From: an uncultured Ruminococcus sp.
Lineage (GTDB): Bacteria; Bacillota; Clostridia; Oscillospirales; CAG-272
DNA: 64,000 nucleotides
Reading direction: 5' to 3'
Assembly: GCA_964621165.1 (NCBI GenBank)
Contig: CAZULC010000001.1
Location: 268,281 to 332,280 of the forward strand
Shown piece by piece: positions 1,284 through 61,462 of this stretch. Each line of letters begins with the position of its first letter. Within the stretch, counting starts at the first letter, position 1. Below the pieces are notes generated by a model. That model searched no databases and had not been told where the DNA came from. It saw only the letters and a program-made list of their open reading frames with translations. The translations under genes were made by a program, and so were the position numbers.

Positions 1284-2416
1284 CAATGGCAGACGTGAAG
1301 AAAATCCAGACGAAGGAGCCGTTCATTCGTTTGGCGAAGCGTGACGGTGTATCCATGAAGAAGAAAGTCGTGATACGTGCGGCGGCCATATTGTTGGCGT
1401 TAGTGATTGACGCGGCGTTTATTGTGATAGTGACGGGGTTAAATCCCATTGCGGTATACCGTGAGATATTTTTAGCAACCTTCCAGACACCGCTGAGGTT
1501 CATGTGGATGCTGCGTGACATGGCGTCATTATTATGCATAGGAATTGCCTTAGCTCCGGCGTTCAAGATGCGGTTTTGGAACATTGGAGCGGAGGGTCAG
1601 GTACTCATGGGCGGATTTGCGACGGCGGTCTGCATGATGAACTTAGGTCAGAGTTTACCGACGCCATTATTATTTTTAGCGATGATAGTGACGAGCGTTT
1701 TAGCTGGTGCTGTATGGTCATTTTTACCGGCGTTTTTCAAGGCGAACTGGGGTACGAACGAGACTTTATTCACTCTAATGATGAACTACGTAGCGATTCA
1801 GCTTGTAGCGTACTACACGAACATATGGCGCGGACAGGCATCCTCCCTTGGAACCATAAACATGGGTACGAAGGCTGGCTGGTTCCCGAAGTTATTCGGC
1901 TATGATTTTACCTTAAACATAATAATAGTGGCAGTGCTTACGGTAGCGATGTACATATATTTAAAGTACACGAAGCACGGCTACGAGATATCGGTAGTAG
2001 GTGAGAGTGAGAACACGGCGCGGTATGCCGGAATTGACGTAAAGAAAGTCACGATACGGACGATGATCATTTCAGGTGCGGTCTGCGGTTTATGCGGGTT
2101 CATAATAGTTGCGGGCAACAAGCACACGATTGCGACGAACACGGCTGGCGGGAACGGGTTCACTGCTATAATAGTGGCGTGGCTTGCGAAGTTCAACACG
2201 TTTTTCATGGCGCTTATCGCGTTCCTCCTGGTATTTCTTGAGAAAGGCGCGAGTCAGATAGCGTCGGCGTACGGTTTAAACGAGTACATCGCGGACATTA
2301 TCTCAGGTGTGATTTTATTCTGCATACTTGGTTCGGAGTTTTTCATAAACTACAGGATGATTTTCCGTCACACTGAGAAAGCTGAAATTTCTGAGAAAGC
2401 AGGTGAAGCAAAATGA
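1280..2416 (+). CDS. ABC transporter permease (BMP/nucleoside-sugar family, YufP/NupP-like)
   Basis: ATGA start/stop overlap with the ATPase gene (ATG 1280, TGA 1281-1283). The protein is polytopic and hydrophobic with a WNIGAEGQ permease motif. The ORF-track start at 1166 lies inside the upstream gene and is unlikely. Confidence 0.85.
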   Translation: MTMADVKKIQTKEPFIRLAKRDGVSMKKKVVIRAAAILLALVIDAAFIVIVTGLNPIAVYREIFLATFQTPLRFMWMLRDMASLLCIGIALAPAFKMRFWNIGAEGQVLMGGFATAVCMMNLGQSLPTPLLFLAMIVTSVLAGAVWSFLPAFFKANWGTNETLFTLMMNYVAIQLVAYYTNIWRGQASSLGTINMGTKAGWFPKLFGYDFTLNIIIVAVLTVAMYIYLKYTKHGYEISVVGESENTARYAGIDVKKVTIRTMIISGAVCGLCGFIIVAGNKHTIATNTAGGNGFTAIIVAWLAKFNTFFMALIAFLLVFLEKGASQIASAYGLNEYIADIISGVILFCILGSEFFINYRMIFRHTEKAEISEKAGEAK

Positions 2417-3411
2417 TAGAGACAAACATACTTGCGTGGATCAGCCGTGCTGTACAGTTTGGCACGATAATAATGTTCGGTTCTCTTGGCGAGATACTGA
2501 CGGAGAAGTCGGGCAATTTAAACCTCGGTGTACCGGGGATAATGTATCTTGGAGCCTTTGCGGGATTTGCGTCAGCGTACGGTTACGAGAACGCGGCGAA
2601 GTCTCCGTCGGGTGCGGTATGCATAATATTAGCGTTAGTGTCGGCGTTTATAGCGGCGGCCATTGGCGGGTTAATATATTCATTTTTGACGATAACCCTA
2701 CGTGCGAACCAGAATGTGACGGGCCTTGCTTTGACTACCTTTGGCATGGGGGTTGCGAACTTCTTTGGAGCTTTGATGTTACAGGGGGAGGTATACACGG
2801 CGGCGCCCATATCGAACGCGGCGTTCATCAAGAAGATACCATATCTCTCGAACCATCTTGGATTTATAGGCGAGGCTATATTCTCATACGGATTTCTCGC
2901 GTACTTTGCGATAATAACGGCTATAATCCTACACATATTTTTAAGCAAGACGAAGTCAGGTTTAAACCTGCGAGCGGTAGGTGAGAATCCTGCTACAGCT
3001 GATGCGGCTGGGATAAACGTATCGAAGTACAAGTATTTAGCGACTACAATTGGTGCGGGGATCTCAGGAATCGGCGGCGTCTATTATGTTCTGGACTACA
3101 ACAACGGCATATGGGCGACGACGGGTCAGATAGAAGCCTTAGGCTGGTTAGCGGTAGCGCTTGTAATCTTCACGACGTGGCGGCCGTTGAATGCAATCTG
3201 GGGAGCATATCTCTTTGGCATGCTCTACTGGCTCTACAACTTTCTCCCGAAGCTCCTCGGTTTCACGAACGTAGACCGCACGAGCAGTCTCTACCAGATG
3301 ATACCGTACATTGTAACGATTATAGTATTAGTGGCGGTAAGTCTCCGGAGAAAGCGCGAATCCCAGCCCCCGGCGTCGCTTGGGTTAGCGTACTTCCGTG
3401 AGGAGCGGTAG
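2413..3411 (+). CDS. ABC transporter permease (YufQ/NupQ-like)
   Basis: ATGA overlap with the upstream permease (ATG 2413, TGA 2414-2416). Hydrophobic 332-aa protein with an NLGVPGIMYLGAF motif. It is the third gene of the importer operon. Confidence 0.85.
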   Translation: MIETNILAWISRAVQFGTIIMFGSLGEILTEKSGNLNLGVPGIMYLGAFAGFASAYGYENAAKSPSGAVCIILALVSAFIAAAIGGLIYSFLTITLRANQNVTGLALTTFGMGVANFFGALMLQGEVYTAAPISNAAFIKKIPYLSNHLGFIGEAIFSYGFLAYFAIITAIILHIFLSKTKSGLNLRAVGENPATADAAGINVSKYKYLATTIGAGISGIGGVYYVLDYNNGIWATTGQIEALGWLAVALVIFTTWRPLNAIWGAYLFGMLYWLYNFLPKLLGFTNVDRTSSLYQMIPYIVTIIVLVAVSLRRKRESQPPASLGLAYFREER

Positions 3412-3427
3412 GTTTAGGAAGTGGAGC

Positions 3428-3731
3428 GATGGGAGACAAGGGGAACGCGCTTCTTGAAAGAAGCTGTGCAAGAACTTTATTCCTCATTCTCCTTTTGGTT
3501 TAGCTGAGCAGGGAATGCTCACTCCGAACTATTCTGCAGCTGAGTAGGTAGGATACGGTGGTAGTGGGAGCAGTCCTTGAACTGAGGAGTAGTTGAGACG
3601 GCAGTCAGGGACCGCCTGGTCGGTACACTTTTCTCCCCCCTGCCTGCCCTCAAACCCTTCCGATTGCGTAATTTAGCAGTGATAACGTGCAGTCGATAGC
3701 AGTTATATCAGCGCGGTTGTTAGTGCTAAGG
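3428..3731 (+). ncRNA. Family C structured intergenic element, copy a (candidate ncRNA, class unknown)
   Basis: Aligns block by block with 41009-41452 and 54080-54406. Outer stem GGGGAA(3440-3445)/TTCCTC(3480-3485) encloses hairpin GCTTCTT-GAA-AGAAGC. The 3' hairpin is TGATAAC..GTTATATCA. No conserved ORF. Confidence 0.5.
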
Positions 3732-3750
3732 TGTTTGTGCATTTGTGTAC

Positions 3751-3772
3751 CTGCTGCGGGAGCAGATTTTTT
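3751..3772 (+). terminator. Weak intrinsic terminator just after Family C copy a
   Basis: CTGCT-GCGGG-AGCAG hairpin followed by ATTTTTT. Confidence 0.35.
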
Positions 3773-6885: not shown

Positions 6886-6976
6886 TCGTGGGAGTTTTTT
6901 ACTACTCAGCTGAAGTTGTGCCGATTTCACCTGTCGGGGTGTCCCGACCCGAGTTCACCTGTCGGGGTGTCCCGGC
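6886..6976 (+). repeat. Family A repeat unit with doubled terminal hairpin
   Basis: TCGTGGGAG..CAGCTGAAG..TTCACCTGTCGGGGTGTCCCGAC followed by a second TTCACCTGTCGGGGTGTCCCGGC. Confidence 0.6.
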
Positions 6977-8796: not shown

Positions 8797-8883
8797 GGGT
8801 CGGTAGCACCGACGGGCGGTCTCGGCGCTGCGGCAGTTGAGCAGGGGAGAAGACCCACGACGACGATTCTTTGGCTCCCGCAG
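8797..8883 (-). repeat. Family A repeat unit (reverse orientation)
   Basis: The reverse complement reads CTGCGGGAGCCAAAGAATCGTCGTCGTGGG..CCGCCCGTCGGTGCTACCGACCC. Confidence 0.65.
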
Positions 8884-14772: not shown

Positions 14773-14881
14773 GCAGGGCGGGGAAGCCCCGACGGGCAAT
14801 TTCGGGTCGGGAAGCCCCGACGGGCGATTTCGGCATTTCTTCAGTTGAGAAGTGGAGACATCCCACGACGACCGGAGACTG
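14773..14881 (-). repeat. Family A repeat unit (reverse orientation, doubled hairpin)
   Basis: Begins on the base after the TAG stop at 14770-14772. CGGGGAAGCCCCGACGGGC occurs twice, then the reverse complement of the 5' module (..GGTCGTCGTGGGATG..). Confidence 0.7.
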
Positions 14882-15808: not shown

Positions 15809-15902
15809 GCGGGAGCTATTGCATATGGTCGTAGGTTGGGAAGTTGTGCAGAGATTGCCTGTCGGGGCTTCCCGACTCGAGATTGCCTGTCGGGGCTTCC
15901 CG
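15809..15902 (+). repeat. Family A repeat unit (compact, doubled hairpin)
   Basis: TGCGGGAGCTATTGCATATGGTCGTAGG..GATTGCCTGTCGGGGCTTCCCGAC followed by a second GATTGCCTGTCGGGGCTTCCCG. Confidence 0.65.
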
Positions 15903-16339: not shown

Positions 16340-16358
16340 TCTTTCTCCTTCCCGCCTA

Positions 16359-16496
16359 TTCTCCTTTAGCGAGAAGAAAAAGACCCAAAAGAGGAACTCC
16401 TTGGAAGTCTTGGGTATTTCGACTTCTGCGGAAGTCGACAAAGGGACTTTGTCCCCTTGACCTAAGCTTTTGTGGCGACAACGTGAAGTTTTAGGG
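16359..16496 (+). repeat. Family B structured repeat, copy B1 (5'-shortened, lacks hairpin H3)
   Basis: CTCCTTTAGCGAGAAG..TCGACTTCTGCGGAAGTCGA..GGGACTTTGTCCC..GTGAAGTTTTAGGG. Confidence 0.65.
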
Positions 16497-20372: not shown

Positions 20373-20399
20373 GAGTGGCGGTTGGCTTCCTTATAATTT

Positions 20400-20620
20400 G
20401 GGTGAAGTGGAGCGGGTGCGGGAATTTTGTTCTTCTTTTTCTCCTTTGGCGAGGAGGAAAAAGAAGCAAAAAGAGGAACTTTTTATTGAGTCTTGGGGTG
20501 TTTCGACTTCTGCGGAAGTCGACAAAGGGACTTTGTCCCCTTGACCCTAACAGACTTTTGAAAAAGTTTGATCAAAACTTGTGGCAACAACGTTTAGTTT
20601 GAAGTTTTAGAGATCCTTCT
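20400..20620 (+). repeat. Family B structured repeat, copy B2
   Basis: H0 CTCCTTTGGCGAGGAG, H1 TCGACTTCTGCGGAAGTCGA, H2 GGGACTTTGTCCC, H3 ACTTTTGAAAAAGT. It ends 30 nt before the cimA ATG. Confidence 0.7.
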
Positions 20621-22269: not shown

Positions 22270-22600
22270 CTGAATTTGGCGTTTTGGACTAATGCCCTTC
22301 TATAAACCGAATAATATTGTGTGGCAGAGTTTAAATTCGGACTATTGTCCCTCTGTTGGCTGTGCGATATTGTGCGGTGGAATTTATTTTTAGGCTATTG
22401 ACCTGTTGTCTCTGCAGTGGGTGAGTTTGAAATTGGACTATTGTCGCTCTATAAGCAGAATGATATTGTGCGGTTGAGCTTAAAATTGGACTAATGTCCC
22501 ATCGGCAAACGTGCTATATTGTGCGGTAGAATTTGATTTTGGACTATTGTTCTGCTGTCTCGGCTATGCGCGAGTTTGAAATTGGCCTAATGCCATACCG
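22270..22600 (+). repeat. Family E tandem array: seven GGACnnnnGTCC-type palindromes in a 149-bp higher-order repeat
   Basis: GGACTA(A/T)TG(T/C)CC-like sites start at 22286, 22339, 22393, 22435, 22488, 22541 and 22584. Spacings are 53, 54, 42, 53, 53 and 43 nt. Each site is preceded by ATATTGTGCGGTnGAATTTGAAATT. Confidence 0.7.
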
Positions 22601-25799: not shown

Positions 25800-26038
25800 T
25801 TATTTTTCTTTTATGGATTGGATGACGGGGAGATGGTGCGGATTGTTCTTTGTTCTTTTCTCCTTTATCGAGGAGCAAAGAACCAAAAGAGGAACTTCTT
25901 GGAAGTATTGGGGTGTTTCGACTTCTGCGGAAGTCGACAATGGGACTTTGTCCACTTGATCCTAACAAGCCTTTGAAAAGGCTTGACCTAAACTTTTGGG
26001 CTGACTACGTTTTGTTGAAATTTTTAGTGATCCTTCTT
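25800..26038 (+). repeat. Family B structured repeat, copy B3 (full length)
   Basis: H0 CTCCTTTATCGAGGAG, H1 TCGACTTCTGCGGAAGTCGA (25918-25937), H2 GGGACTTTGTCCA, H3 AAGCCTTTGAAAAGGCTT. It ends 14 nt before ATG 26052. Confidence 0.7.
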
Positions 26039-38096: not shown

Positions 38097-38777
38097 TGCG
38101 GGAGCTTAAGTTTGTCGTCGAAGGTTGGCTTTAAATCAAAACTGAACGAACGATGTGCTTGCCCGTGGGGGCTTCCCCGCAATCGTAGGTTTTCGGGCGG
38201 TTTTGGGGCTGATGAAGTGCCGTGCTTGCCGCTACCGACCCCACTGCGGGAGCTTAAGTTTGTCATCGAGGGTTGGCTTTAAATCAAAACTGAACGAACG
38301 ATGTGCTTGCCCGTGGGGGCTTCCCCGCAATCGTAGGTTTTCGGGCGGTTTTGGCTGATGAAGTGCCGTGCTTGCCTGTCGGTGCTACCGACCCCACTGC
38401 GGGAGCTTTAGTTTGTCATCGAGGGTTGGCTTTAAATCAAAACTGAACGAACGACGTGCTTGCCCGTGGGGGCTTCCCCACAATCGTAGGTTTTCGGGCG
38501 GTTTTGGGACTGATGAAGTGCCGTGCTTGCCGCTACCGAACCCACTGCGGGAGCTTTAGTTTGTCATCGAGGGTTGGCTTTAAATCAAAACTGAACGAAC
38601 GACGTGCTTGCCCGTGGGGGCTTCCCCACAATCGTAGGTTTTCGGGCGGTTTTGGGACTGATGAAGTGCCGTGCTTGCCGCTACCGAACCCACTGCGGGA
38701 GCTTTAGTTTGTCATCGAGGGTTGGCTTTAAATCAAAACTGAACGAACGACGTGCTTGCCCGTGGGGGCTTCCCCAC
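38097..38777 (+). repeat. Tandem array of Family A composite units (4.6 x 148-153 bp)
   Basis: Units start at 38097, 38245, 38398, 38546 and 38694 (TGCGGGAGCTT..). Units are near-identical. The last unit is cut at 38777 and supplies the last 14 codons of the GH2 gene on the other strand. Confidence 0.85.
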
Positions 38778-40961
38778 CTTGGCGGCTTCTGCGGCCTCTT
38801 TTGACTCTATGTACATGTTGTATTCGTTGACTATTGTAGTGCCGCAGGCGCATTTGAAGGTCAGCTTCACTTGGAACACCGTCTTCGGCTTCGTTCCTGC
38901 GGGGAACTTGAACTTTATTACGCCGCCTTTGGCGTTTTTGTTCTCCTCTGCCACAACATGGTGTACGCCAGTGTAATATTCAACTCCGTCAAGCGTAATT
39001 TCGGAGATAATGTCGCCTTCCGGTGCGTGAGGGCCGTCGTTGAGCAGCCATGTCTCGAACTCGAACTCCTCCTCCGGAAACCACGCAAATTTCCTGAACT
39101 TGGCTGAGGGAACAACATCGCGGAGGGAGTCTTTTACCGCAAAATACCCGCCCTTTTTCACGTTGGGGTATGCGATGAGGGAGTTGTTCGCGGCGCACTT
39201 CCACGGCTCGCACCAGCACCAGTTGATTGCCATTGCGCAGAGGGGCTTCTGACGGCGGGCTTCCTCGAAAATTGCCTTATATCCGATGCCTTGGAGCCTG
39301 TTTGACGTCTCGACGATTGACTCAATTGTGGAAATATCACCAAATCTTTCCAGCGTTGGAAGACTCAGCCACGGATTCATGCCGCCCCATGCATAGAACG
39401 CGTGATGTGCCTGCCAAACTCCGCCAGGCTTGGGTGGGAACAGCTCGTCCTCGGGGATAAATGAGCGGAGGTACTCTACACTCGGCGGAGTTGCGGGAAT
39501 TCCAAACTCGGTGTAGGCTGTGGCGCGGGTCCGACCGAAGAGTGCGAACTGGTCCTCACCGGTTTCAAGATCGAGGAAGGTATAGCCGCCGTGCTTCATT
39601 CCGTCGATTGGCGAGGTGGGGTTGAAGGGGACTTCGGGGCAAAGCTCGAGGGTGAGTGCGTTGAGGAGTCGGAGCGCGAGGTGCTGATCCGTCATGCCCG
39701 ACCAGCTATTGAACAGCTCGTTTCCGCCGCACCAGATTGCGATGGACGGATGTGAGCGGAGCTTCAGAATTATTGCGGTTGCCTCCTGCTTGAGAATGGA
39801 TAAATATTCAGGGGAGTCGTAGTAGTTATTGCAGGACAGGGGGAACTCGAACCAGAGCATGATTCCGTATTTATCGCAGAGGCTGTAAAAAATTTCCTTC
39901 TGGCATCCGGTACCGCCCCAGCAGCGGAATACGTTCATGTTGGCTTCATACGCGAACCTGATGAGTTCCTCGTATTCTTTATCTGTCACAATGCCGGGGA
40001 AGATTTCCTGATTGACGTAGTTGGAGCCTTTTGCGAAAACGTTGACTCCGTTGAGTGTAATCTGAGCCGGTGGCCATGCGCGGGACTTAGGGAAGCCTTG
40101 TGGGTCGATGAGTCTGCCGCAGTTTTGGGTGAGCTGGACTCTACGGAAGCCGATTTTCTTATCAACTGAGTTTTCTTCATTATAAACGGTGACTGTATAA
40201 AGGTTGGGTTCGCCGTAGCCTCTACACCACCAGAGCTTGGGATTTTCGACGTACGCGGTGAATTTACCGTCAATGGTTGTTCCTTCGGCAACGACATCTC
40301 CTGCTGTGTCGGTGATTTTGACCTTACAGGGGAGTGTTGAGTCGACGGTTGTAGTGACTTCGGCGTGTGTGAAGTCCGGGGAAAGGGTATAGCGGGATTC
40401 TGTTCTGCCGATATAGTATTGGTTACGTGATTCTACGAATGTGTCGTCCCATATACCGGAGGGGATAGCTCTGGGGTGCCAGTCCCAGTAGTAGGAGACG
40501 GGGGGTTTACAGGACTGGGAGGCTTGGTTACGGTCCATTGGCATACCCTCGAGCATGGGGTGGGGGTGGATTTTGATTTTGAGGTTATCGCCGGGCTTAG
40601 TGTTACGACCGAAGAGTGAGTTTGCGAAGTCGTCGAGGCAGATATCGACCCGTGAGAACATACCCTCGTGGTGGAAGATCTCGCGGTCATTGAGGAGTAC
40701 GGTCCAGATATAGTCGATCCCCTCGGTAGCGAACCAGATTTTCTCGCCGGCCTTACGCTGGAAGTCGAGAGTTGTGGTATAATACCAAGTAAAAGGTTCC
40801 AGCTGCGTCATCTTTTCGTGCTGCATACCGTAGTTTATATCCGAGATGAATTCTGGGTGTGCCTTAATATAGTCATTCTGCACGTTTCCGGGAACCTGAG
40901 CGGGAAACGGCGGGCAGTCGACATCCGGCGAGTAAGCGGTAAAATTTTGGTAAAACTTCAT
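38733..40961 (-). CDS. Glycoside hydrolase family 2 (beta-mannosidase / exo-glucosaminidase-like)
   Basis: GH2 architecture with a sugar-binding N-terminal region, a TIM barrel with FRCWGG and CGGNELFN. AAGGAG SD. The C-terminal GKPPRASTSFVQF is encoded by the antisense of a Family A unit. Confidence 0.85.
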   Translation of the reverse strand: MKFYQNFTAYSPDVDCPPFPAQVPGNVQNDYIKAHPEFISDINYGMQHEKMTQLEPFTWYYTTTLDFQRKAGEKIWFATEGIDYIWTVLLNDREIFHHEGMFSRVDICLDDFANSLFGRNTKPGDNLKIKIHPHPMLEGMPMDRNQASQSCKPPVSYYWDWHPRAIPSGIWDDTFVESRNQYYIGRTESRYTLSPDFTHAEVTTTVDSTLPCKVKITDTAGDVVAEGTTIDGKFTAYVENPKLWWCRGYGEPNLYTVTVYNEENSVDKKIGFRRVQLTQNCGRLIDPQGFPKSRAWPPAQITLNGVNVFAKGSNYVNQEIFPGIVTDKEYEELIRFAYEANMNVFRCWGGTGCQKEIFYSLCDKYGIMLWFEFPLSCNNYYDSPEYLSILKQEATAIILKLRSHPSIAIWCGGNELFNSWSGMTDQHLALRLLNALTLELCPEVPFNPTSPIDGMKHGGYTFLDLETGEDQFALFGRTRATAYTEFGIPATPPSVEYLRSFIPEDELFPPKPGGVWQAHHAFYAWGGMNPWLSLPTLERFGDISTIESIVETSNRLQGIGYKAIFEEARRQKPLCAMAINWCWCEPWKCAANNSLIAYPNVKKGGYFAVKDSLRDVVPSAKFRKFAWFPEEEFEFETWLLNDGPHAPEGDIISEITLDGVEYYTGVHHVVAEENKNAKGGVIKFKFPAGTKPKTVFQVKLTFKCACGTTIVNEYNMYIESKEAAEAAKVGKPPRASTSFVQF

Positions 40962-41008
40962 GCGGTTTGGCTCCTTATTTATAGATTTAATTAGGTTCAG
41001 ATTTGATG

Positions 41009-41452
41009 TGAAGGTGAACGAGGGGGACGTGCTTCTTTAAAGAAGCTGTGCAGGAACTTTATTCCTCATTCTGTTTTATGTGAAGTTTAGCAGGACATGT
41101 TCACTCCGAGCTAATCTGTAGTTTAGTAAGGAGGATGCGGAGAAAATATAGAATACCAAGGGATCAGGAGGGATATAATACGGCAGTCAGGAACAGCCTT
41201 ATTGGAGATAGCTTGCTATCTCCGGTACACAGTTCCCGCCCCCTGTCTGCCCACGCCGGATTCAGATTGCGGGATGGGGCAGTGATAACGTGCAGTTTAC
41301 ATCAGTTATATCAGCGCGAGCGTTGGTGCTGATGGTTGAGAAGATCATGAAATGTTGCGATTGCTGGATTAGCAGTGATAACGTTTGGTTCTACAGCAGT
41401 TATATCAGCGCGAGCGTTGGTGTTGAGGGTGGAGAAAATCATGACGGTATAT
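41009..41452 (+). ncRNA. Family C structured intergenic element, copy b (3' module tandemly duplicated)
   Basis: Same block order as copies a and c. Hairpin GGAGATAGC-TT-GCTATCTCC is present. The 3' module GCAGTGATAACG..GTTATATCAGCGCGAGCGTTGGTG occurs twice (41279 and 41372, 93-nt period). Confidence 0.5.
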
Positions 41453-41826
41453 TATCTTGTAATAAAGTAAATCCCGGAGTGACGTTTCAAAACAAGCGTA
41501 GATGAAACCCTGCTCTCGCAAGGACGGCGCCCTCTCCGATGGTTTGTGCTCCCAGCGTCCTAATCACTACGGCGGCGCGGAATGCGTCTCACGGTAATGG
41601 AGGGAGGTCTGCATACCTGCACCGGAAGTCCAGGCTCCTTTTTACTCTTTGTGGGTTTTTACGCTCATCTTTATTTCGTACACCCCAGGACAGGGTTGAT
41701 TATATGATGTTGGTTTTGCGTACTTCTGTTATAGTTCGGTTTAAGTTTGCGTTATCCTTGACTTTTCAATCTTAGAATCAAGTTGTTCTTATGAAATTTA
41801 ATTTTGCTTAAATTGCTTGTGAAGCC

Positions 41827-43501: not shown

Positions 43502-43676
43502 TTTCCCGGTAGCTTGGGTTTGTCGTCGAGGGATTGCTGTAAATTTAAACTGCAAAAATGACGTGTCTGCCTGTCGTTGCTATTGACTGCGGGAGCTAAA
43601 GTTTGTAGTCGAGGGATCGCTTCAAATTCAGACTTCAAAAACGACGAGATAGCCCGCGGGGACTTCCCCGCCCCCA
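43502..43676 (+). repeat. Two tandem Family A units (first with a degenerate hairpin)
   Basis: ..GGTAGCTTGGGTTTGTCGTCGAGGGATTGC.. then TGCGGGAGCTAAAGTTTGTAGTCGAGGGATCGC..GACGAGATAGCCCGCGGGGACTTCCCCGC. Confidence 0.65.
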
Positions 43677-44821: not shown

Positions 44822-45125
44822 TGGAATTGGATTTAGAGAATTCAGGGATTTCGTTGTTATTTTCTCATTTATCGATGAGCAAAGGACCAAAAGAGGAACT
44901 CCTTGGAAGTATTGGGTGTTTCGAATTCTTCGGAATTCGACAATGGGACCCGCTTCCCTTGACCCTAACAAACTTTTGAAAAGGCTTGATCTAAACTTTA
45001 TTGCTACAACGTGAAGTTGAGTAGTGAAGTTTGCCCGCGGGGGCTTCCCCGCTTCCCTTGACCCTAACAAGTCTTTGAAAAGGCTTGATCTAAACTTTTC
45101 GGCAACAAAGTGAAGTTGAAATTTA
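44822..45125 (+). repeat. Family B structured repeat, copy B4 (chimeric, 3' module duplicated around a Family A hairpin)
   Basis: H0 CTCATTTATCGATGAG and H1 TCGAATTCTTCGGAATTCGA. The 3' module CTTGACCCTAACAA..AAAGGCTTGATCTAAACTT occurs twice, separated by CCCGCGGGGGCTTCCCCGC (45034-45052). Confidence 0.7.
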
Positions 45126-49754: not shown

Positions 49755-49985
49755 GCTTTCTCCTTTATGGATTTATGTACAAGGGGAGAATAGTGCGGGA
49801 TTTCGTTGTTCTTTTCTCCTTTATCGAGGAGCAAAGAACCAAAAGAGGAACTCCAGAAAGAGCTTGCTCTTTCAGAAGTCAATGGGGTGTTTCGAATTCT
49901 GCGGAATTCGACAATGGGACTATGTCACCTTGACCTAAACTTTTGGGCTGACAATGTTTAGTTTAAATTTATTGAGATACTTCTA
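49755..49985 (+). repeat. Family B structured repeat, copy B5 (lacks hairpin H3)
   Basis: H0 CTCCTTTATCGAGGAG, H1 TCGAATTCTGCGGAATTCGA, H2 GGGACTATGTCAC. It ends 28 nt before ATG 50013. Confidence 0.7.
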
Positions 49986-51679: not shown

Positions 51680-52828
51680 TTACGTTTTTTCATCAAATGG
51701 CTCGCCTTTTACCGCTCCAATGCACATGACGGCCTGTGTGTCGGTGTTCTCCCACCAGTTTTCGCTGATGAAGCAGCCACACTCGTCGAAGGTGACGTTT
51801 CCGCCGAACTCCGGGTCATGCTGGAAGAAATTCCAACCGTAAAGGGTTATGTTATTGTCAAGGGACTGATTTGAGGTTTCGGCAGAAGTTCCCCATTCCC
51901 GGTAGCCGGTGATTATGCAGGGTTCCGGTGGTCCTATGATACCCAGCGCTATGCAGGGGTAGCCTTCGTCTATGTGGGACTTGATGAAGTTTGTGAAGTC
52001 GTCCTTGGTGGTGGTTTTGTCCCGCCCGGTGAAGAAGAATTCCCGTCCCAAAGCTTCTGCTGGGATTCTGTAGACGCCGCCGCTTTCGTCGAAGGTGTGG
52101 CAGATGTCAACGTTGCTCAGGTCCCAGTCGAGGCTGTTCCACGCGAATCTGAACGCGGCTCCGGTGATTGCCATGGTTGTGGGGCAGTCAACGTCCTCAC
52201 CGAGGTAGGCGAGAGTTGATTTGAGGCAGATGGGGTAGGGTGTACAGCCGCCGTATTCGCCGAAGCCAGCCTTGGGGATGCCATATAAGATGGTGCTGTT
52301 GGTGGATTGTTTTGTCATGGGTATGTCGCTCCTTTGTTCTTTTTTGGGAATAATGCCTACGCTGAATATACCGTCACATAATTGCACCTTTCCGACAATG
52401 GGTCGTTCTGAAAAAGATTTGTCGCCATGCTGCGGGAGTTTTGTTTTGTCGTCGTGGGATAGCTTTACGGTTTCAGCTTCAGAAGTGCCGTTTTGCCTGT
52501 CGGGGCTTCCCGACCTGAATTTGCTGGGATTCATGCCTGTGATTCTGTGGAATGAGCGGGTGTAGGTTTCATGGCTGGAGAAGCCGTACTTTAGTGCTAT
52601 GTCGAGTATGGTTTTGTCCGAGTGGAGGAGGTCGAGGGCTGAGCGGTGGATTTTCCGCGTGAGGATATACCTTGTGATTGGCATGCCTGTGTCGTGGCGG
52701 AACTGGGTTCGGATATGCACCCACGAGAAGCCGAGTGCTTTTTGGATTTGCTCCGGTGTGAGTGGGGAGTCGAGAATATGGGACTCGATATAGCGGATTG
52801 CGGCTATGGTGCAGAGTGGATAGCTCAT
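51680..52828 (-). CDS. AraC-type HTH regulator with an uncharacterised C-terminal domain, carrying an in-frame Family A insertion in the linker
   Basis: N-terminal HTH (ITRYILTRKIHRSALDLL..IALKYGFSSHETYTRSFHRITG). The linker SGSPDRQNGTSEAETVKLSHDDKTKLPQ is encoded by the antisense of repeat 52430-52514. AAAGGAA SD. Confidence 0.75.
   Translation of the reverse strand: MSYPLCTIAAIRYIESHILDSPLTPEQIQKALGFSWVHIRTQFRHDTGMPITRYILTRKIHRSALDLLHSDKTILDIALKYGFSSHETYTRSFHRITGMNPSKFRSGSPDRQNGTSEAETVKLSHDDKTKLPQHGDKSFSERPIVGKVQLCDGIFSVGIIPKKEQRSDIPMTKQSTNSTILYGIPKAGFGEYGGCTPYPICLKSTLAYLGEDVDCPTTMAITGAAFRFAWNSLDWDLSNVDICHTFDESGGVYRIPAEALGREFFFTGRDKTTTKDDFTNFIKSHIDEGYPCIALGIIGPPEPCIITGYREWGTSAETSNQSLDNNITLYGWNFFQHDPEFGGNVTFDECGCFISENWWENTDTQAVMCIGAVKGEPFDEKT
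52430..52514 (+). repeat. Family A repeat unit located inside a CDS (antisense to it)
   Basis: TGCGGGAGTTTTGTTTTGTCGTCGTGGGATAGC..CAGCTTCAGAAGTGCCGTTTTGCCTGTCGGGGCTTCCCGAC. All Family A modules are present. Confidence 0.7.
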
Positions 52829-52947: not shown

Positions 52948-54027
52948 TTACAGCTCAATCTCGACTTCGTGACCGCATGCGTTGGATCTGATAATGCCGT
53001 CGATGATGGCTTGGTTATATATAATCTGCGACGTGGGGATGGGAGCGCCGGTGCCGTTTTTCACAGCGTCGATGAACGCGCGGATTTTGGACTCGAACAT
53101 GCCCATTTTCACGTTATTACCTTCAACGGGGATTTCGGTTGCGATCTGTTTACCTTCTTCGTTGTCCTTATAGAGGATGAGATCTCCTGCGGCGCCGTCC
53201 CAGCAGCATCCGACGGGGGCTTTTACTTTAAGTCCGGCTTCGGTGCCGAAGAACATTGAGTCGCCGGTGGTATCCATATTCATAGCCCACGACGCGCGGT
53301 AGTCGATTACAATATCGCCCTCACAGCGGATCATTGCCACGGCGAAATCGTCGTCGACTGTGAATCTTGCGGCTTCTGCGTATTTTTTGGGATTTTTACC
53401 GAAGTAAGCGAACTGTTTAGCGGAGACTGTGAGCGGTTTAGGGTAGCCGATAGAGTTAAGAGCGAAGTCGAGGCCATAGCAGCCTATATCACCTACAGCG
53501 CCCACTGCGGCTTTATCCTTTTCGATAAATGTGCGTCCGGGGATACCCTTGACTCGACCTCCGCCGACTACCACGTAGTAGACCTTTCCGAGGACTCCTG
53601 AGTCAATGACTTCGCGGACCTTTTTGACGTTAGCGCCGTATCTTGGCTGGAATCCGACTGTGACGAAATGGTTTGTAGCCTTCTCGACCGCGCATATGGC
53701 CTTAGCCTCGTCGAGAGTGACGCACATAGGTTTTTCGAGCATGACGTCTTTTCCCGAGGTGAGCGCGCAGATAGTAGGTGCGGCGTGCTGGGAGTTATAG
53801 GTACACACGGACACAGCGTCAATATCGTCTCTTGCGCACAGTTCCTCATGTGTTTCATAAGCGGCAGCGTCGGTCAAGCCGAATTCGTCGAGGAACTTTC
53901 TTGCCTTTCCGGGAACAATATCAGCTCCGGCTACGACTTCCACGTCATCGAAACTCTTATAAGCCCGTGCGTGGTTATGCGCGATTCCACCGGTACCGAT
54001 AATCCCGATTCTAAGTTTATCCTTCAT
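52948..54027 (-). CDS. Gfo/Idh/MocA family oxidoreductase
   Basis: LRIGIIGTGGIAHNHA Rossmann N-terminus and the LEKPM motif. Confidence 0.9.
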   Translation of the reverse strand: MKDKLRIGIIGTGGIAHNHARAYKSFDDVEVVAGADIVPGKARKFLDEFGLTDAAAYETHEELCARDDIDAVSVCTYNSQHAAPTICALTSGKDVMLEKPMCVTLDEAKAICAVEKATNHFVTVGFQPRYGANVKKVREVIDSGVLGKVYYVVVGGGRVKGIPGRTFIEKDKAAVGAVGDIGCYGLDFALNSIGYPKPLTVSAKQFAYFGKNPKKYAEAARFTVDDDFAVAMIRCEGDIVIDYRASWAMNMDTTGDSMFFGTEAGLKVKAPVGCCWDGAAGDLILYKDNEEGKQIATEIPVEGNNVKMGMFESKIRAFIDAVKNGTGAPIPTSQIIYNQAIIDGIIRSNACGHEVEIEL

Positions 54028-54079
54028 ATGTTTTATACCAACCTTTCTTGGTGAGATTTTGTTTTATGTGTAATACAGT

Positions 54080-54406
54080 GATGGGAAACGAGGGGAGACG
54101 CGCTTCTTGAAAGAAGCTGTGCAAGAACTTTACTCCTCATTCTTTATCACGTTCAGTTGAGTAGGGGAACGGTCACTTCGTACAATTCTGCAGCTTAGCA
54201 GGGAGGAGTCCGGATAAGGTGGAGCGATCCAGGGGATGAGGACACAGTGGCTGACAGCAGTCAGGGACCGCCTTGTTGGAGATAGATTGCTATCTCCGGT
54301 ACACGTTCCCGACCCCTGCCTGCCCACGCCGGATTCAGATTGCGGGATGAAGCAGTGATAACGTTTTATTTACAGCAGTTATATCAGCGCGAGCGGAGTG
54401 CTTGCC
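54080..54406 (+). ncRNA. Family C structured intergenic element, copy c
   Basis: Outer stem GGGGAG(54092-54097)/CTCCTC(54133-54138) encloses GCTTCTT-GAA-AGAAGC. Hairpin GGAGATAG-ATTG-CTATCTCC is present. The 3' hairpin is TGATAAC..GTTATATCA. Confidence 0.5.
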
Positions 54407-54514
54407 GCGGAGAATATCAGGACGGATTACGATTCTGGAATATGGTTTGCAGTAGTTTCGCGAATCAGGACGGTGCCAGATTCTGCAATCCAGTGCGGAG
54501 TAGTGCAGCGATAC

Positions 54515-55453
54515 TTATACCGCGGCAAGCCACTGGGCGAACATTACTATGGGTGCAATTGTTACTGTGCAGAACAGGACTGACGAGCCTACGAGCTCAC
54601 TTGCGTATCCGGGGGAGATTTTATACATTTCGTCGAACATTGTGACCACCGCCGCGCAGGGCATTGCCGCCATTATTGTGCCGAAGACTATCATATATTC
54701 GGGGAGTCCCACGAGTTTTAATATACATGCGGTGAGGAGGGGCATTATTACGAGTTTTACTATATTTGTGTAGTAGACGTTTTTATTTTTAAGCATTATT
54801 TTCAGCGAGCGGCGGGAGAGGTTTGCTCCGGAGATTATCATTGATATGGGGGTGCAGATATTACTTAGATATGACGTGAGGTTGAGGAGGGGCTGGGGGA
54901 GGGGAAGGTGGAGAACGAACAGTGTTAAGCCTATGATGCAGGGCAGTGTGCCATAGTTGAGGATTATTTTCTTTGGTGTGATTTTTATGTCGTTGCGCTT
55001 TCTTGCTAAAATCATGATTCCCCATGTCCAGACGAAGAGGTGGAAGGACACGATATAGAACGCGCCATAGAAGAGGCCCTCTTCACCGAAGATTGAGTTT
55101 ACGATAGGGAAGCCGATGAAGCCGCAGTTTGCGAAGAACATTGAGTATTCGGAGAGCTTTTGTTCATCGAAGTCGCGGATGGGTCGGGCGAGGAGGAAAG
55201 CCACAGCCGCCATTGCCCCATGCATACAGAGGCCGAGAGCGAGAATTTTCAGTCCTGTTATTAGGTTTTCCCGGGTGTACTCTTGGGAAATGAGGGCGTT
55301 TATGATGAGAAAGGGCTGACCCAATTTTATGATTAGTGTGGAGAGGCGTTCGGTGGAAATTTCGTCTGTGATTTTCGTCTTACCCGTGATATAGCCTGCC
55401 AAAAGAAGCAGTGCGAGGGTGGCGACGGTTGATAATAGCTCGCTTGTCTGCAT
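54515..55453 (-). CDS. AEC (auxin efflux carrier) family transporter
   Basis: 312-aa polytopic membrane protein with the two-repeat AEC layout. It starts 4 nt after the stop of the amidase gene. Confidence 0.8.
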   Translation of the reverse strand: MQTSELLSTVATLALLLLAGYITGKTKITDEISTERLSTLIIKLGQPFLIINALISQEYTRENLITGLKILALGLCMHGAMAAVAFLLARPIRDFDEQKLSEYSMFFANCGFIGFPIVNSIFGEEGLFYGAFYIVSFHLFVWTWGIMILARKRNDIKITPKKIILNYGTLPCIIGLTLFVLHLPLPQPLLNLTSYLSNICTPISMIISGANLSRRSLKIMLKNKNVYYTNIVKLVIMPLLTACILKLVGLPEYMIVFGTIMAAMPCAAVVTMFDEMYKISPGYASELVGSSVLFCTVTIAPIVMFAQWLAAV

Positions 55454-61031: not shown

Positions 61032-61138
61032 TGAACTTTGGGTTCTTGGCTGTGCTGCTTGGCGTGTGCATGATTTTGGTATAAGTTATAAATTAAGCCT
61101 TGCTTGAATAAATTTTATTTGAGTGGGGCTTATTCTAT

Positions 61139-61462
61139 TGCGGGAGCTTGAGCTTGCCGTCGAGAGAGCTTTTCCGCTTTTGGCTGAAGAAATGACGAGA
61201 ACACCCGCGGGGGTTTCCCCGCTTCCTTCATTATTATATATAAGAATTTTTGCGGGAGCTTGAGCTTGCCGTCGAGAGAGCTTTTCCGCTTTCGGCTGAA
61301 TAAATGACGAGAACACCCGCGGGGGTTTCCCCGCTTCTTTCATTATTATATATAAGTATTTTTGCGGGAGCTTGAGCTTGTCGTCGAGGGATCTTTTCCG
61401 CTTTTGGCTGAAGAAATGACGAGAACACCCGCGGGGGTTTCCCCGCTTCTTATTATATATAG
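61139..61462 (+). repeat. Tandem array of Family A units (3 x 112 bp)
   Basis: TGCGGGAGCTTGAGCTTG(C/T)CGTCGAG..GACGAGAACACCCGCGGGGGTTTCCCCGC plus a 28-nt AT-rich spacer. Units start at 61139, 61251 and 61363. Confidence 0.85.

Follow-up and report, generated by a model that had tools for sequence, protein, structure and literature searches.

Streptococcus pneumoniae and S. suis carry BOX elements, non-coding intergenic repeats assembled from modules as boxA-(boxB)n-boxC, one module varying in tandem number. How many boxB modules are present differs between loci and between strains; the fold of boxB does not depend on the end modules, and in S. suis one and the same boxB is found with more than one kind of end module around it (PMC3049150). 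BOX elements also have terminal inverted repeats and target duplications, and their variable module lies between the end modules.

Other small repeats share some of these properties. REP, BIME and REPIN sequences are short imperfect palindromes, extragenic, often placed just after a gene and present at high copy number, and they occur either singly or in inverted doublets, which fold into long hairpins (typically about 100 nt for a REPIN), with no transposase inside the element. MITEs and ERIC-type elements (RUP, Correia/NEMIS, ERIC/IRU) are small, non-coding, multi-copy and intergenic, with internal indels, presence/absence polymorphism and predicted hairpins when co-transcribed. PATEs of the IS200/IS605 type have subterminal hairpins, lack inverted terminal repeats and target duplications, and insert 3' of a short conserved sequence.

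Here we describe family C, a repeat present three times in a 64-kb stretch of DNA (the window, by which we mean the whole stretch analysed), one copy of which carries its 3' module twice. We consider it probable, though well short of certain, that family C is a new non-coding, multi-copy, modular intergenic repeat of uncultured gut Clostridia, like BOX, REP and MITE sequences in kind.

Results

Family C is a modular repeat found three times between genes

The window is ordinary chromosome of a glycan-degrading Clostridia bacterium, with genes for GH2, GH3 and GH123 proteins, a fucosidase, a sulfatase, AraC-type regulators, AddAB, GuaA and MnmG; no transposase or recombinase was found in its 64 kb. 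The GH2 protein has a 100% identical database protein (P0001), and exact look-ups of the GH2 and DUF1292 proteins returned no record. The window also contains several tandem arrays and, besides family C, at least three repeat families.

All three family C copies are intergenic and on the plus strand. The element is built from a head, a lineage-specific core of about 230 nt and one or two tail modules; the head consists of G-rich octamers, the hairpin GCTTCTT-GA-AAGAAGC and then GCAAGAACTTT. The copies and their immediate neighbours are as follows.

3425-3740, plus strand: copy a, with one tail module (3661-3740), between an ABC permease stop codon (3411) and a terminator-like hairpin (3751-3765)
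38733-40961, minus strand: GH2-family glycoside hydrolase gene (Pfam Glyco_hydro_2_N2, Glyco_hydro_2 and Glyco_hydro_2_C), the divergent neighbour of copy b
41005-41452, plus strand: copy b, whole element, delimited by nhmmer and BLAST against copies a and c, between the GH2 start (40961) and the 6S RNA 3' end (41467)
41012-41061, plus strand: head of copy b, comprising G-rich GGTGAACGAGGGGGACG, the hairpin GCTTCTTTAAAGAAGC (41031-41046) and then TGTGCAGGAACTTTA
41062-41264, plus strand: core of copy b, with a helix of GCAGTCAGG (41183-41191) and CCCTGTCTGC (41241-41250) around an optional hairpin GGAGATAGCTTGCTATCTCC (41204-41223)
41265-41357, plus strand: tail module b1, comprising GATTGCGGGAT, arm GCAGTGATAACGT (41279-41291), a variable loop, arm CAGTTATATCAGCGCG (41303-41318) and GAGCGTTGGTGCTGATGG..ATCATGA
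41358-41452, plus strand: tail module b2, the tandem duplicate, with arms at 41372-41384 and 41397-41412
41467-41694, minus strand: 6S RNA gene (RF00013, full-length, 30.2 bits, E 1.7e-4), convergent with copy b, outside the element and bounding its 3' side
54072-54430, plus strand: copy c, with one tail module (54338-54430); a divergent Gfo/Idh/MocA gene has its start codon (54027) 51 nt away

As the initial annotation of this DNA had noted, copy b lies 48 nt from the GH2 start codon (minus strand) and points away from it; its other end is about 15 nt from the 6S RNA 3' end. Six family C copies were examined in total, these three and those of three related loci (L003, L019 and L020; assemblies GCA_037193895.1, GCA_037193765.1 and GCA_037193195.1), whose GH2 falls in the same 90%-identity cluster as that of the window. 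The core is known only from the window and these relatives; copies b and c have its optional hairpin, which copy a and the three relatives lack. A profile search of 592 kb of related DNA found no tail module outside the window.

We found no clear terminal inverted repeats in family C, none that joins the ends of copy b, and no target-site duplication; complementarity between the G-rich 5' end of copy b and a C-rich stretch at 41235-41254 is only weak. A distant BLAST search of plasmid and phage collections gave no match to copy b. Logan contigs of run SRR10165008 are 100% identical to the window and end inside copies a and c, identity in copy c being complete up to contig ends at 54119 and 54256; assembly breaks inside copies are the usual signature of a repeat.

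Copy b carries its tail module in tandem

The 3' module of copy b had been described as occurring twice, at 41279 and 41372, with a 93-nt period. BLAST and a pattern search bear this out, with the unit of about 93 nt starting 14 nt earlier: 41265-41350 aligned to 41359-41444 at 85% identity (E 1e-20 to 1e-18), and a repeat finder gave spacings of 93 and 94 nt, while Tandem Repeats Finder at its thresholds did not call the duplication. The pattern GCAGTGATAACG-N(8-24)-CAGTTATATCAGCG matched at 41279-41316 and 41372-41410 in copy b and once each in copy a (3676-3713) and copy c (54352-54389), giving four matches in the window against 0 in 100 shuffles. Each unit begins with GATTGC (41265 and 41359) and ends about 7 nt beyond ATCATGA. 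The nearest relative of b1 is b2, and vice versa (84.7% identity); with the module of copy c, the two are 78.6% and 80.0% identical.

Reading the two modules side by side, we recovered the differences that the earlier description had listed: the loops are not the same, and a small helix that is ATCAGC/GCTGAT in b1 has become TCAGC/GTTGA in b2, with one G-U pair. The module is not a coding repeat, as a 1-nt indel puts b1 and b2 out of frame with each other in the sole ORF that spans both units (41290-41505).

Relatives keep the head and core and have a different tail

The three relatives have the element at the same site between GH2 and 6S RNA, with head and core kept up to CCCCCTGCC(T/C)GCC...GATTGCGGGAT. 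From there on the tail module of the window is gone, replaced by about 190 nt of unrelated sequence that includes a TCTCT-rich run; L003 and L020 have remnants of the module only, as fragments reading CAGTTATAGGATTGCGGGATAACGTG. Because these relatives keep the core at this locus with a different tail, the family C tail is dispensable. The segment before the core helix is the copy a variant in L019 and the copy c variant in L003 and L020, and this mosaic make-up of orthologous copies points to probable recombination or gene conversion among copies. Compared across these loci, as had been proposed, module number (one in copies a and c, two in copy b, replacement in the relatives) fits modular change.

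L001, a more distant relative, shares its gene order with the window (YgjV, DUF1292, GH2, metallo-beta-lactamase, RACo, AddAB), its GH2 being 71% identical, and has the 6S block with no family C element at the site; the 6S RNA gene is conserved in this genome and in the other three. Loci L004-L018, whose Gfo belongs to the same 90%-identity cluster as that beside copy c, are without the element, and are uninformative as empty sites because their gene neighbourhood also differs.

Tail arms are conserved in sequence while folds are not

The stems had been called identical in b1 and b2; we found that both arms, GCAGTGATAACGT and CAGTTATATCAGCGCG, are in fact invariant in all four modules of the window. 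In the four-module alignment, 48 of 85 columns are invariant and the arms form invariant runs of 16 and 13 columns; of 100,000 permutations, about 0.1% gave an invariant run as long as the longest observed and none gave both runs at once.

The initial annotation had taken this conservation to indicate a functional hairpin and had held that the duplicated module is unlike neutral sequence. The first reading stands only as far as the arms being far more conserved than the rest of the module. In the proposed stem, 8 of 11 positions pair; it is the minimum-energy fold of none of the four modules, which fold differently from each other, and their z-scores against shuffled sequence (-0.67 to -2.04) are not exceptional; as the dominant fold, the hairpin is unsupported. 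Because the arms never vary, the four modules offer no compensatory change in the stem; the C-to-T change that gives the G-U pair fits an alternative pairing, CAGTGATAACG/CGTTGGTGCTG, equally well, and the left arm pairs as well with CGTTGGTGCTG further downstream. Since the arms are conserved while the folds are not, the constraint seen in the tail module is one of sequence and not of demonstrable structure.

The contrast with neutral sequence likewise holds in part: the arm runs exceed chance, but recombination could hold the copies identical, and since the copies are mosaics of each other, arm identity is possible without selection on a hairpin. Decay of the stems in other copies had been named as the observation that would count against function, and this is largely what the orthologous site displays, the module being absent or fragmentary in all three relatives; the suggested look for partner proteins of the hairpin found none in the window or the related loci. 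The functional-hairpin interpretation is therefore partly supported, in that there is sequence constraint on the arms in this genome; a functional hairpin as such is unsupported, and the module is dispensable in close relatives.

The head is shared by gut Clostridia of different genera

A pattern from the three window copies, CTGTGCANGAACTTTANTCCTCA, inside which the orthologues vary, found nothing in viral, genome or metagenome collections. A relaxed 30-mer of the head, GCTTCTTKAAAGAAGCTNNGCARGAACTTT, succeeded, recovering 40 loci in 15 species-representative MAGs together with 20 metagenome contigs; the MAG records name Eubacteriales, Clostridia, Oscillospiraceae and Ructibacterium from human, buffalo and deer gut. 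Over 30 nt, the head is unchanged in at least 15 species-level MAGs of gut Clostridia, across genera, and it is the sole part of family C common to other species. Its hairpin is preceded by tandem G-rich octamers (GGGGAACG and similar) or by small hairpins that covary and have UUCG/UCCG loops; GAACTTT is followed by one of several unrelated bodies, or directly by the next gene.

With the head hairpin and its flanks, nhmmer gave 88 hits in 592 kb of ascertained loci, three of these hits being in the window, mostly between ORFs. By crude ORF calling, 12 of 68 exact-pattern heads lie within ORFs called at 90 aa or more, and 31 of the 61 heads with a known upstream neighbour follow a co-directional ORF stop within 60 nt. 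Most of the remainder are 50-135 nt from a divergent start codon; the divergent genes inspected are ones that we take, from reading the N-termini of their translations, to resemble pheS, der, hisA, ilvN and rpsH.

The bodies themselves vary between loci. In L030 a 117-nt body follows immediately on GAACTTTT, whereas in L063 and L075 the head stands alone, the DNA around it being nearly identical; the junction is clean, with a target duplication of at most 1 nt, and this single presence/absence case, in another species, is the evidence for mobility. A 220-nt central segment in L026 is absent from L052 and L068 at the same locus, and the subterminal hairpin module of L055, about 84 nt long, is present three times in tandem at one end and once at the other. 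L026, L061, L052/L068 and L055 are long imperfect palindromes of 230-720 nt, in which the head, with its octamers now C-rich, recurs as an inverted complement at the 3' end. An inverted partner head lies 110-700 nt downstream of about 9 of 68 heads and of no family C copy, the three in the window included. Between the facing heads of L040 we found ordinary genes and no transposase, and ORF clustering around 60 loci returned only generic or spurious recurrent protein families. No autonomous copy with family C ends was found, and a full-text literature search for the head hairpin sequence found no paper.

A more specific version of our preferred explanation would make the head and tail arms the subterminal hairpins of an IS200/IS605-type PATE or a REP/REPIN element, moved by a Y1/HUH enzyme (TnpA or RAYT) encoded elsewhere in the genome. 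Hairpins do occur near both ends of the element, which lacks terminal inverted repeats; the L030 body sits directly 3' of GAACTTTT with no target duplication; a subset of heads forms inverted, REPIN-like doublets; and heads cluster at gene ends, outside genes. However, no Y1/HUH homologue was found in about 656 kb (best E 0.14, with approximate probe sequences), and heads show no replication-strand bias by GC skew (32 versus 29). A single TnpA normally recognises left and right hairpins that resemble each other, but those at the 5' and 3' sides of family C have no sequence relationship; and REPs usually diverge along with their RAYT, whereas the head stays identical from genus to genus. We consider this version rather unlikely. 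Group 1 RAYTs have been reported in Clostridia (PMC5581495); none is linked to family C, and none was found linked to heads in the window or the approximately 656 kb of loci.

More speculatively still, the head might be the recognition signal of a novel trans-acting system that nucleates and spreads modular structured bodies, with family C expressed and its tail arms serving as a second, lineage-specific putative protein-binding site. Candidates for such a system would be a single-strand DNA enzyme of RAYT type, or a host factor that binds or processes RNA at gene ends, and the duplication in copy b would then double a functional site; we give this proposal little probability.

Folding, covariation and transcription signals

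That family C is a structured sRNA gene of about 320-450 nt on the plus strand, its tail hairpin an RNA domain such as a protein-binding platform and its duplication a doubling of sites, was suggested by the fold of copy b as a whole, which has a z-score of -3.9 to -4.05 on the plus strand against about -0.8 to -1.05 on the minus strand. This good fold arises mainly because b1 pairs with b2. The asymmetry vanishes for the cores (z +0.5 to -2.0 for both strands, hardly more stable than shuffled sequence) and for copies a and c (-0.3 to -2.0, again for both strands), and is reversed over 66 head-bearing loci, where the minus strand folds better (-3.1 versus -2.3, Wilcoxon p ~1e-5); selection on a plus-strand RNA is unsupported after these comparisons.

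Among the six family C copies, three helices were assessed for pairing.

Head hairpin with a 3-pair extension: 94% paired; the six hairpin pairs are invariant and one extension pair is changed on both sides in one sequence
GCAG-CAGGG / CCCUG-CUGC, in the core: 98% paired; one compensatory A-U to G-C pair, in two related sequences
TCCTCA / TGAGGA: 78% paired; decays in the orthologues

Overall, 2 of 24 pairs tested change on both sides. The well-paired core helix speaks for an RNA, as do the variable-length hairpin insertion in copies b and c, a feature typical of RNA families, the covarying small hairpins 5' of the head in other species and the conservation of the tail arms beyond chance. Against it stand the decay of the third helix, the want of a common fold among tail modules and the absence of the tail domain from the three relatives. 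No promoter or terminator was found framing any family C copy. Rfam at gathering threshold had no match in the whole window or in 19 related loci, counting out CsrB/RsmY-type RNAs, OLE, ROOL, GOLLD, HEARO, raiA, group I/II introns and T-box; a search of L061 at E up to 1 found nothing. With E up to 10, the sole match in 40900-41600 was RsmY (13.5 bits against a gathering threshold of 57, E 0.87), and we rejected a CsrA sponge like RsmY or CsrB, for which that match and a GGA-rich composition were the only basis. Family C does not display the promoter and terminator of its own, the folding or the covariation of a stand-alone structured sRNA, and we regard that identity as improbable.

A cis-regulatory module of the divergent neighbour, whether a minus-strand promoter, an insulator or a leader, would explain why copies b and c lie 48 and 51 nt from the GH2 and Gfo start codons. 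Short 'type 1' relatives are similarly 51-64 nt from divergent housekeeping starts, which from their N-terminal translations we take to be pheS-, der-, hisA- and ilvN-like, the pheS-like case recurring in two species; and a minus-strand promoter-like site, TTCACA-17-TAAAGT, overlaps the conserved GAACTTTA. But promoter-like matches occur at the level of shuffled sequence (four found versus 2.1 +/- 1.4 expected), the 31 of 61 heads just after co-directional stop codons have the wrong placement, copy a follows a gene end so that its minus-strand reading enters the 3' end of that gene, and the syntenic GH2 of L001 has no element. We judge this explanation very improbable.

Finally, an assembly artefact might be suspected of a repetitive family in a window apparently taken from a metagenome-derived contig, where an independent de Bruijn assembly of the same sample stops inside copies a and c, but it is exceedingly improbable because b1 and b2 differ at 13 of 85 aligned positions plus indels and the tail-to-head junction of ATCATGAAATGTTGC with GATTGCTGG (also written as ATCATGAAATGTTGC with GATTGCTGGATTAGC; spanning stretch ATCATGAAATGTTGCGATTGCTGGATTAGC) is unique, with zero k-mers in common with other copies, and the GH2 and 6S flanks are contiguous at this locus in four other assemblies.

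Discussion

Family C is best read as a lineage-specific member of a clade-wide superfamily of modular intergenic repeats, its tail module as an exchangeable unit, and the doubling in copy b as a local tandem duplication. The modular copy-number variation of BOX is found in family C, where a 93-nt module occurs once or twice and is replaced in relatives, and in the related L055, with three modules at one end against one at the other. The variable module is at the 3' end in family C, in contrast to its place between end modules in BOX, and the terminal repeats and target duplications of BOX are not found. The likeness is a functional analogy, with no claim of sequence similarity, and the hosts differ (Streptococcus versus gut Clostridia).

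The head is a short, abundant, mostly extragenic palindrome that behaves much as a REP unit does. It differs from REP sequences in having tandem G-rich octamers and the invariant linear motif GCAAGAACTTT, identical across genera; its doublets span 170-720 nt, longer than a typical REPIN, and family C is single-headed. Family C shares with MITEs and ERIC-type elements small size, lack of coding capacity, copy number and internal indels, and its superfamily shares presence/absence polymorphism, whereas the target-site duplication, matching autonomous IS and clear terminal inverted repeats of MITEs are all missing. Subterminal hairpins, and the insertion 3' of a short conserved sequence seen in L030, are compatible with a PATE, but the left and right hairpins are unrelated, there is no strand bias, and no tnpA or tnpB was found nearby or in the loci examined.

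On this modular-repeat reading, the extra module of copy b would have come from unequal recombination or replication slippage between tail modules, after which b1 and b2 would have diverged by 15%. Recombination or gene conversion among copies may have kept the arms near-identical, and the arms are probably also putative recognition sites, as single-stranded DNA hairpins, for a trans-acting enzyme that spreads the elements. Read-through from neighbouring genes, which probably places copy a in a 3' UTR before the terminator, would add hairpins to the transcript, with an effect that is at most modulatory. A purely selfish or neutral model leaves unexplained the conservation of the arms, the one compensatory helix in the core and the identity of the head across genera, and these three features point to real constraint.

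The duplication itself carries little weight, as changes in module number are routine in mosaic bacterial repeats. For annotation, the case of family C counsels caution against calling a repeat a regulatory RNA from hairpins conserved only within one genome. Head-bearing repeats, which have neither an Rfam entry nor a literature match for the head hairpin sequence, break short-read assemblies of these genomes, and they mark places where DNA has been rearranged or where copies have recombined. The gut Clostridia concerned, which degrade host glycans, are densely populated by families of modular intergenic repeats with a single invariant head in common, and these repeats could offer a way into a REP/RAYT-like system of Clostridia.

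A probable 6S RNA gene beside copy b

Copy b of family C, the non-coding modular intergenic repeat, is convergent with a small gene that we identify, from its covariance-model match, as probably encoding 6S RNA:

Window 41467-41694, minus strand: probable 6S RNA (SsrS) gene, full-length match to RF00013

At 30.2 bits (E 1.7e-4), the match falls short of the gathering score, which is 46.4. A DUF1292 gene lies upstream; the gene itself is near-identical in three close relatives (L003, L019 and L020) and the more distant syntenic L001, while the intergenic DNA around it is not alignable.

Family C heads before other bodies

The head of family C also occurs outside the family, and at one locus a body follows it in one contig and is absent in two others:

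L030 3530-3559, minus strand: head

Immediately after this head's GAACTTTT stands a 117-nt non-coding body, which the otherwise near-identical contigs L063 and L075 lack; this presence/absence polymorphism is clean, with a target duplication of at most 1 nt.

A shorter arrangement, which we call 'type 1', was found near divergent genes:

L037, L057, L042, L050, L053 and L039: short 'type 1' heads

These elements of about 80 nt consist of TTAGTTTnATGT..GGTACGGTC, the head and ATTTTGGCTGTCGCCG. At the first five loci the hairpin lies 51-64 nt from the divergent start codon, and the divergent genes are presumably pheS-, ilvN-, der- or hisA-like, as judged by reading their translated N-termini by eye; the divergent gene at L039 we take to be YebC-like. 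The pheS-like gene adjoins a 'type 1' head in two species, and the small hairpin covaries (GGC-TGTC-GCC versus GCC-TGAC-GGC).

Heads also terminate long imperfect palindromes:

L055 2721-3440; L061 555-1075; also L026, L052 and L068: long imperfect-palindrome elements, 230-720 nt

Inverted heads bound these elements, and the octamers are G-rich at the 5' end but C-rich at the 3' end. The L055 element carries three tandem subterminal modules on its left and one on its right, and L026 has a 220-nt insert in its centre that L052 and L068, at the same locus, lack.

Other repeat families in the window

Further repeats occupy the window:

16356-16491, 20398-20620, 25803-26037, 44845-45124, 49757-49984: five-copy intergenic repeat family, 110-235 nt
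6886-6976, 8797-8864, 14778-14872, 15847-15901, 52448-52524: short dispersed repeat family, 55-95 nt, both orientations
38097-38777; also 43556-43672, 61138-61461, 22284-22594: long-unit tandem arrays

The 5' part of the five-copy family, a hairpin CTTCTTTTTCTCC..GGAGGAAAAAGAAG followed by ..GAGGAACTTTTTATTG, is similar in design to the family C head, which suggests that the two may be members of one superfamily. The tandem arrays are built of units of 148 nt x 4.6, 112 nt x 2.9 and 149 nt x 2.1, and a CCCGTGGGGGCTTCCCCAC-type hairpin is common to the first three listed. The array at 38097-38777 overlaps the GH2 ORF by 45 nt at the end of the ORF, whose product has 742 aa in the window versus 739 or 719 aa in relatives.

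Repeats at assembly ends and possible breakpoints

Logan contigs of run SRR10165008 match the window at 100% identity, which identifies the sample containing this genome, or a strain that does not differ from it over the matched stretches. Their ends fall within copies a and c; these repeats fragment short-read assemblies.

Window 3467: end of L082
Window 54119: end of L002
Window 54256: end of L081

An 11-nt inverted repeat (GCTTGCCGCGG / CCGCGGCAAGC, window 54401-54411 and 54519-54529) connects the copy c tail module with the 3' end of the convergent membrane-transporter gene.

In L004-L013, contigs from Hadza and other gut metagenomes, an ABC permease pair is followed directly by a Gfo/Idh/MocA gene on the same strand; these Gfo/Idh/MocA genes fall in one 90%-identity cluster with that of the window. 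In the window, permease (2413-3411) and Gfo/Idh/MocA (52948-54027) genes are 50 kb apart, copy a adjoining the former and copy c the latter. Family C repeats may mark rearrangement breakpoints.
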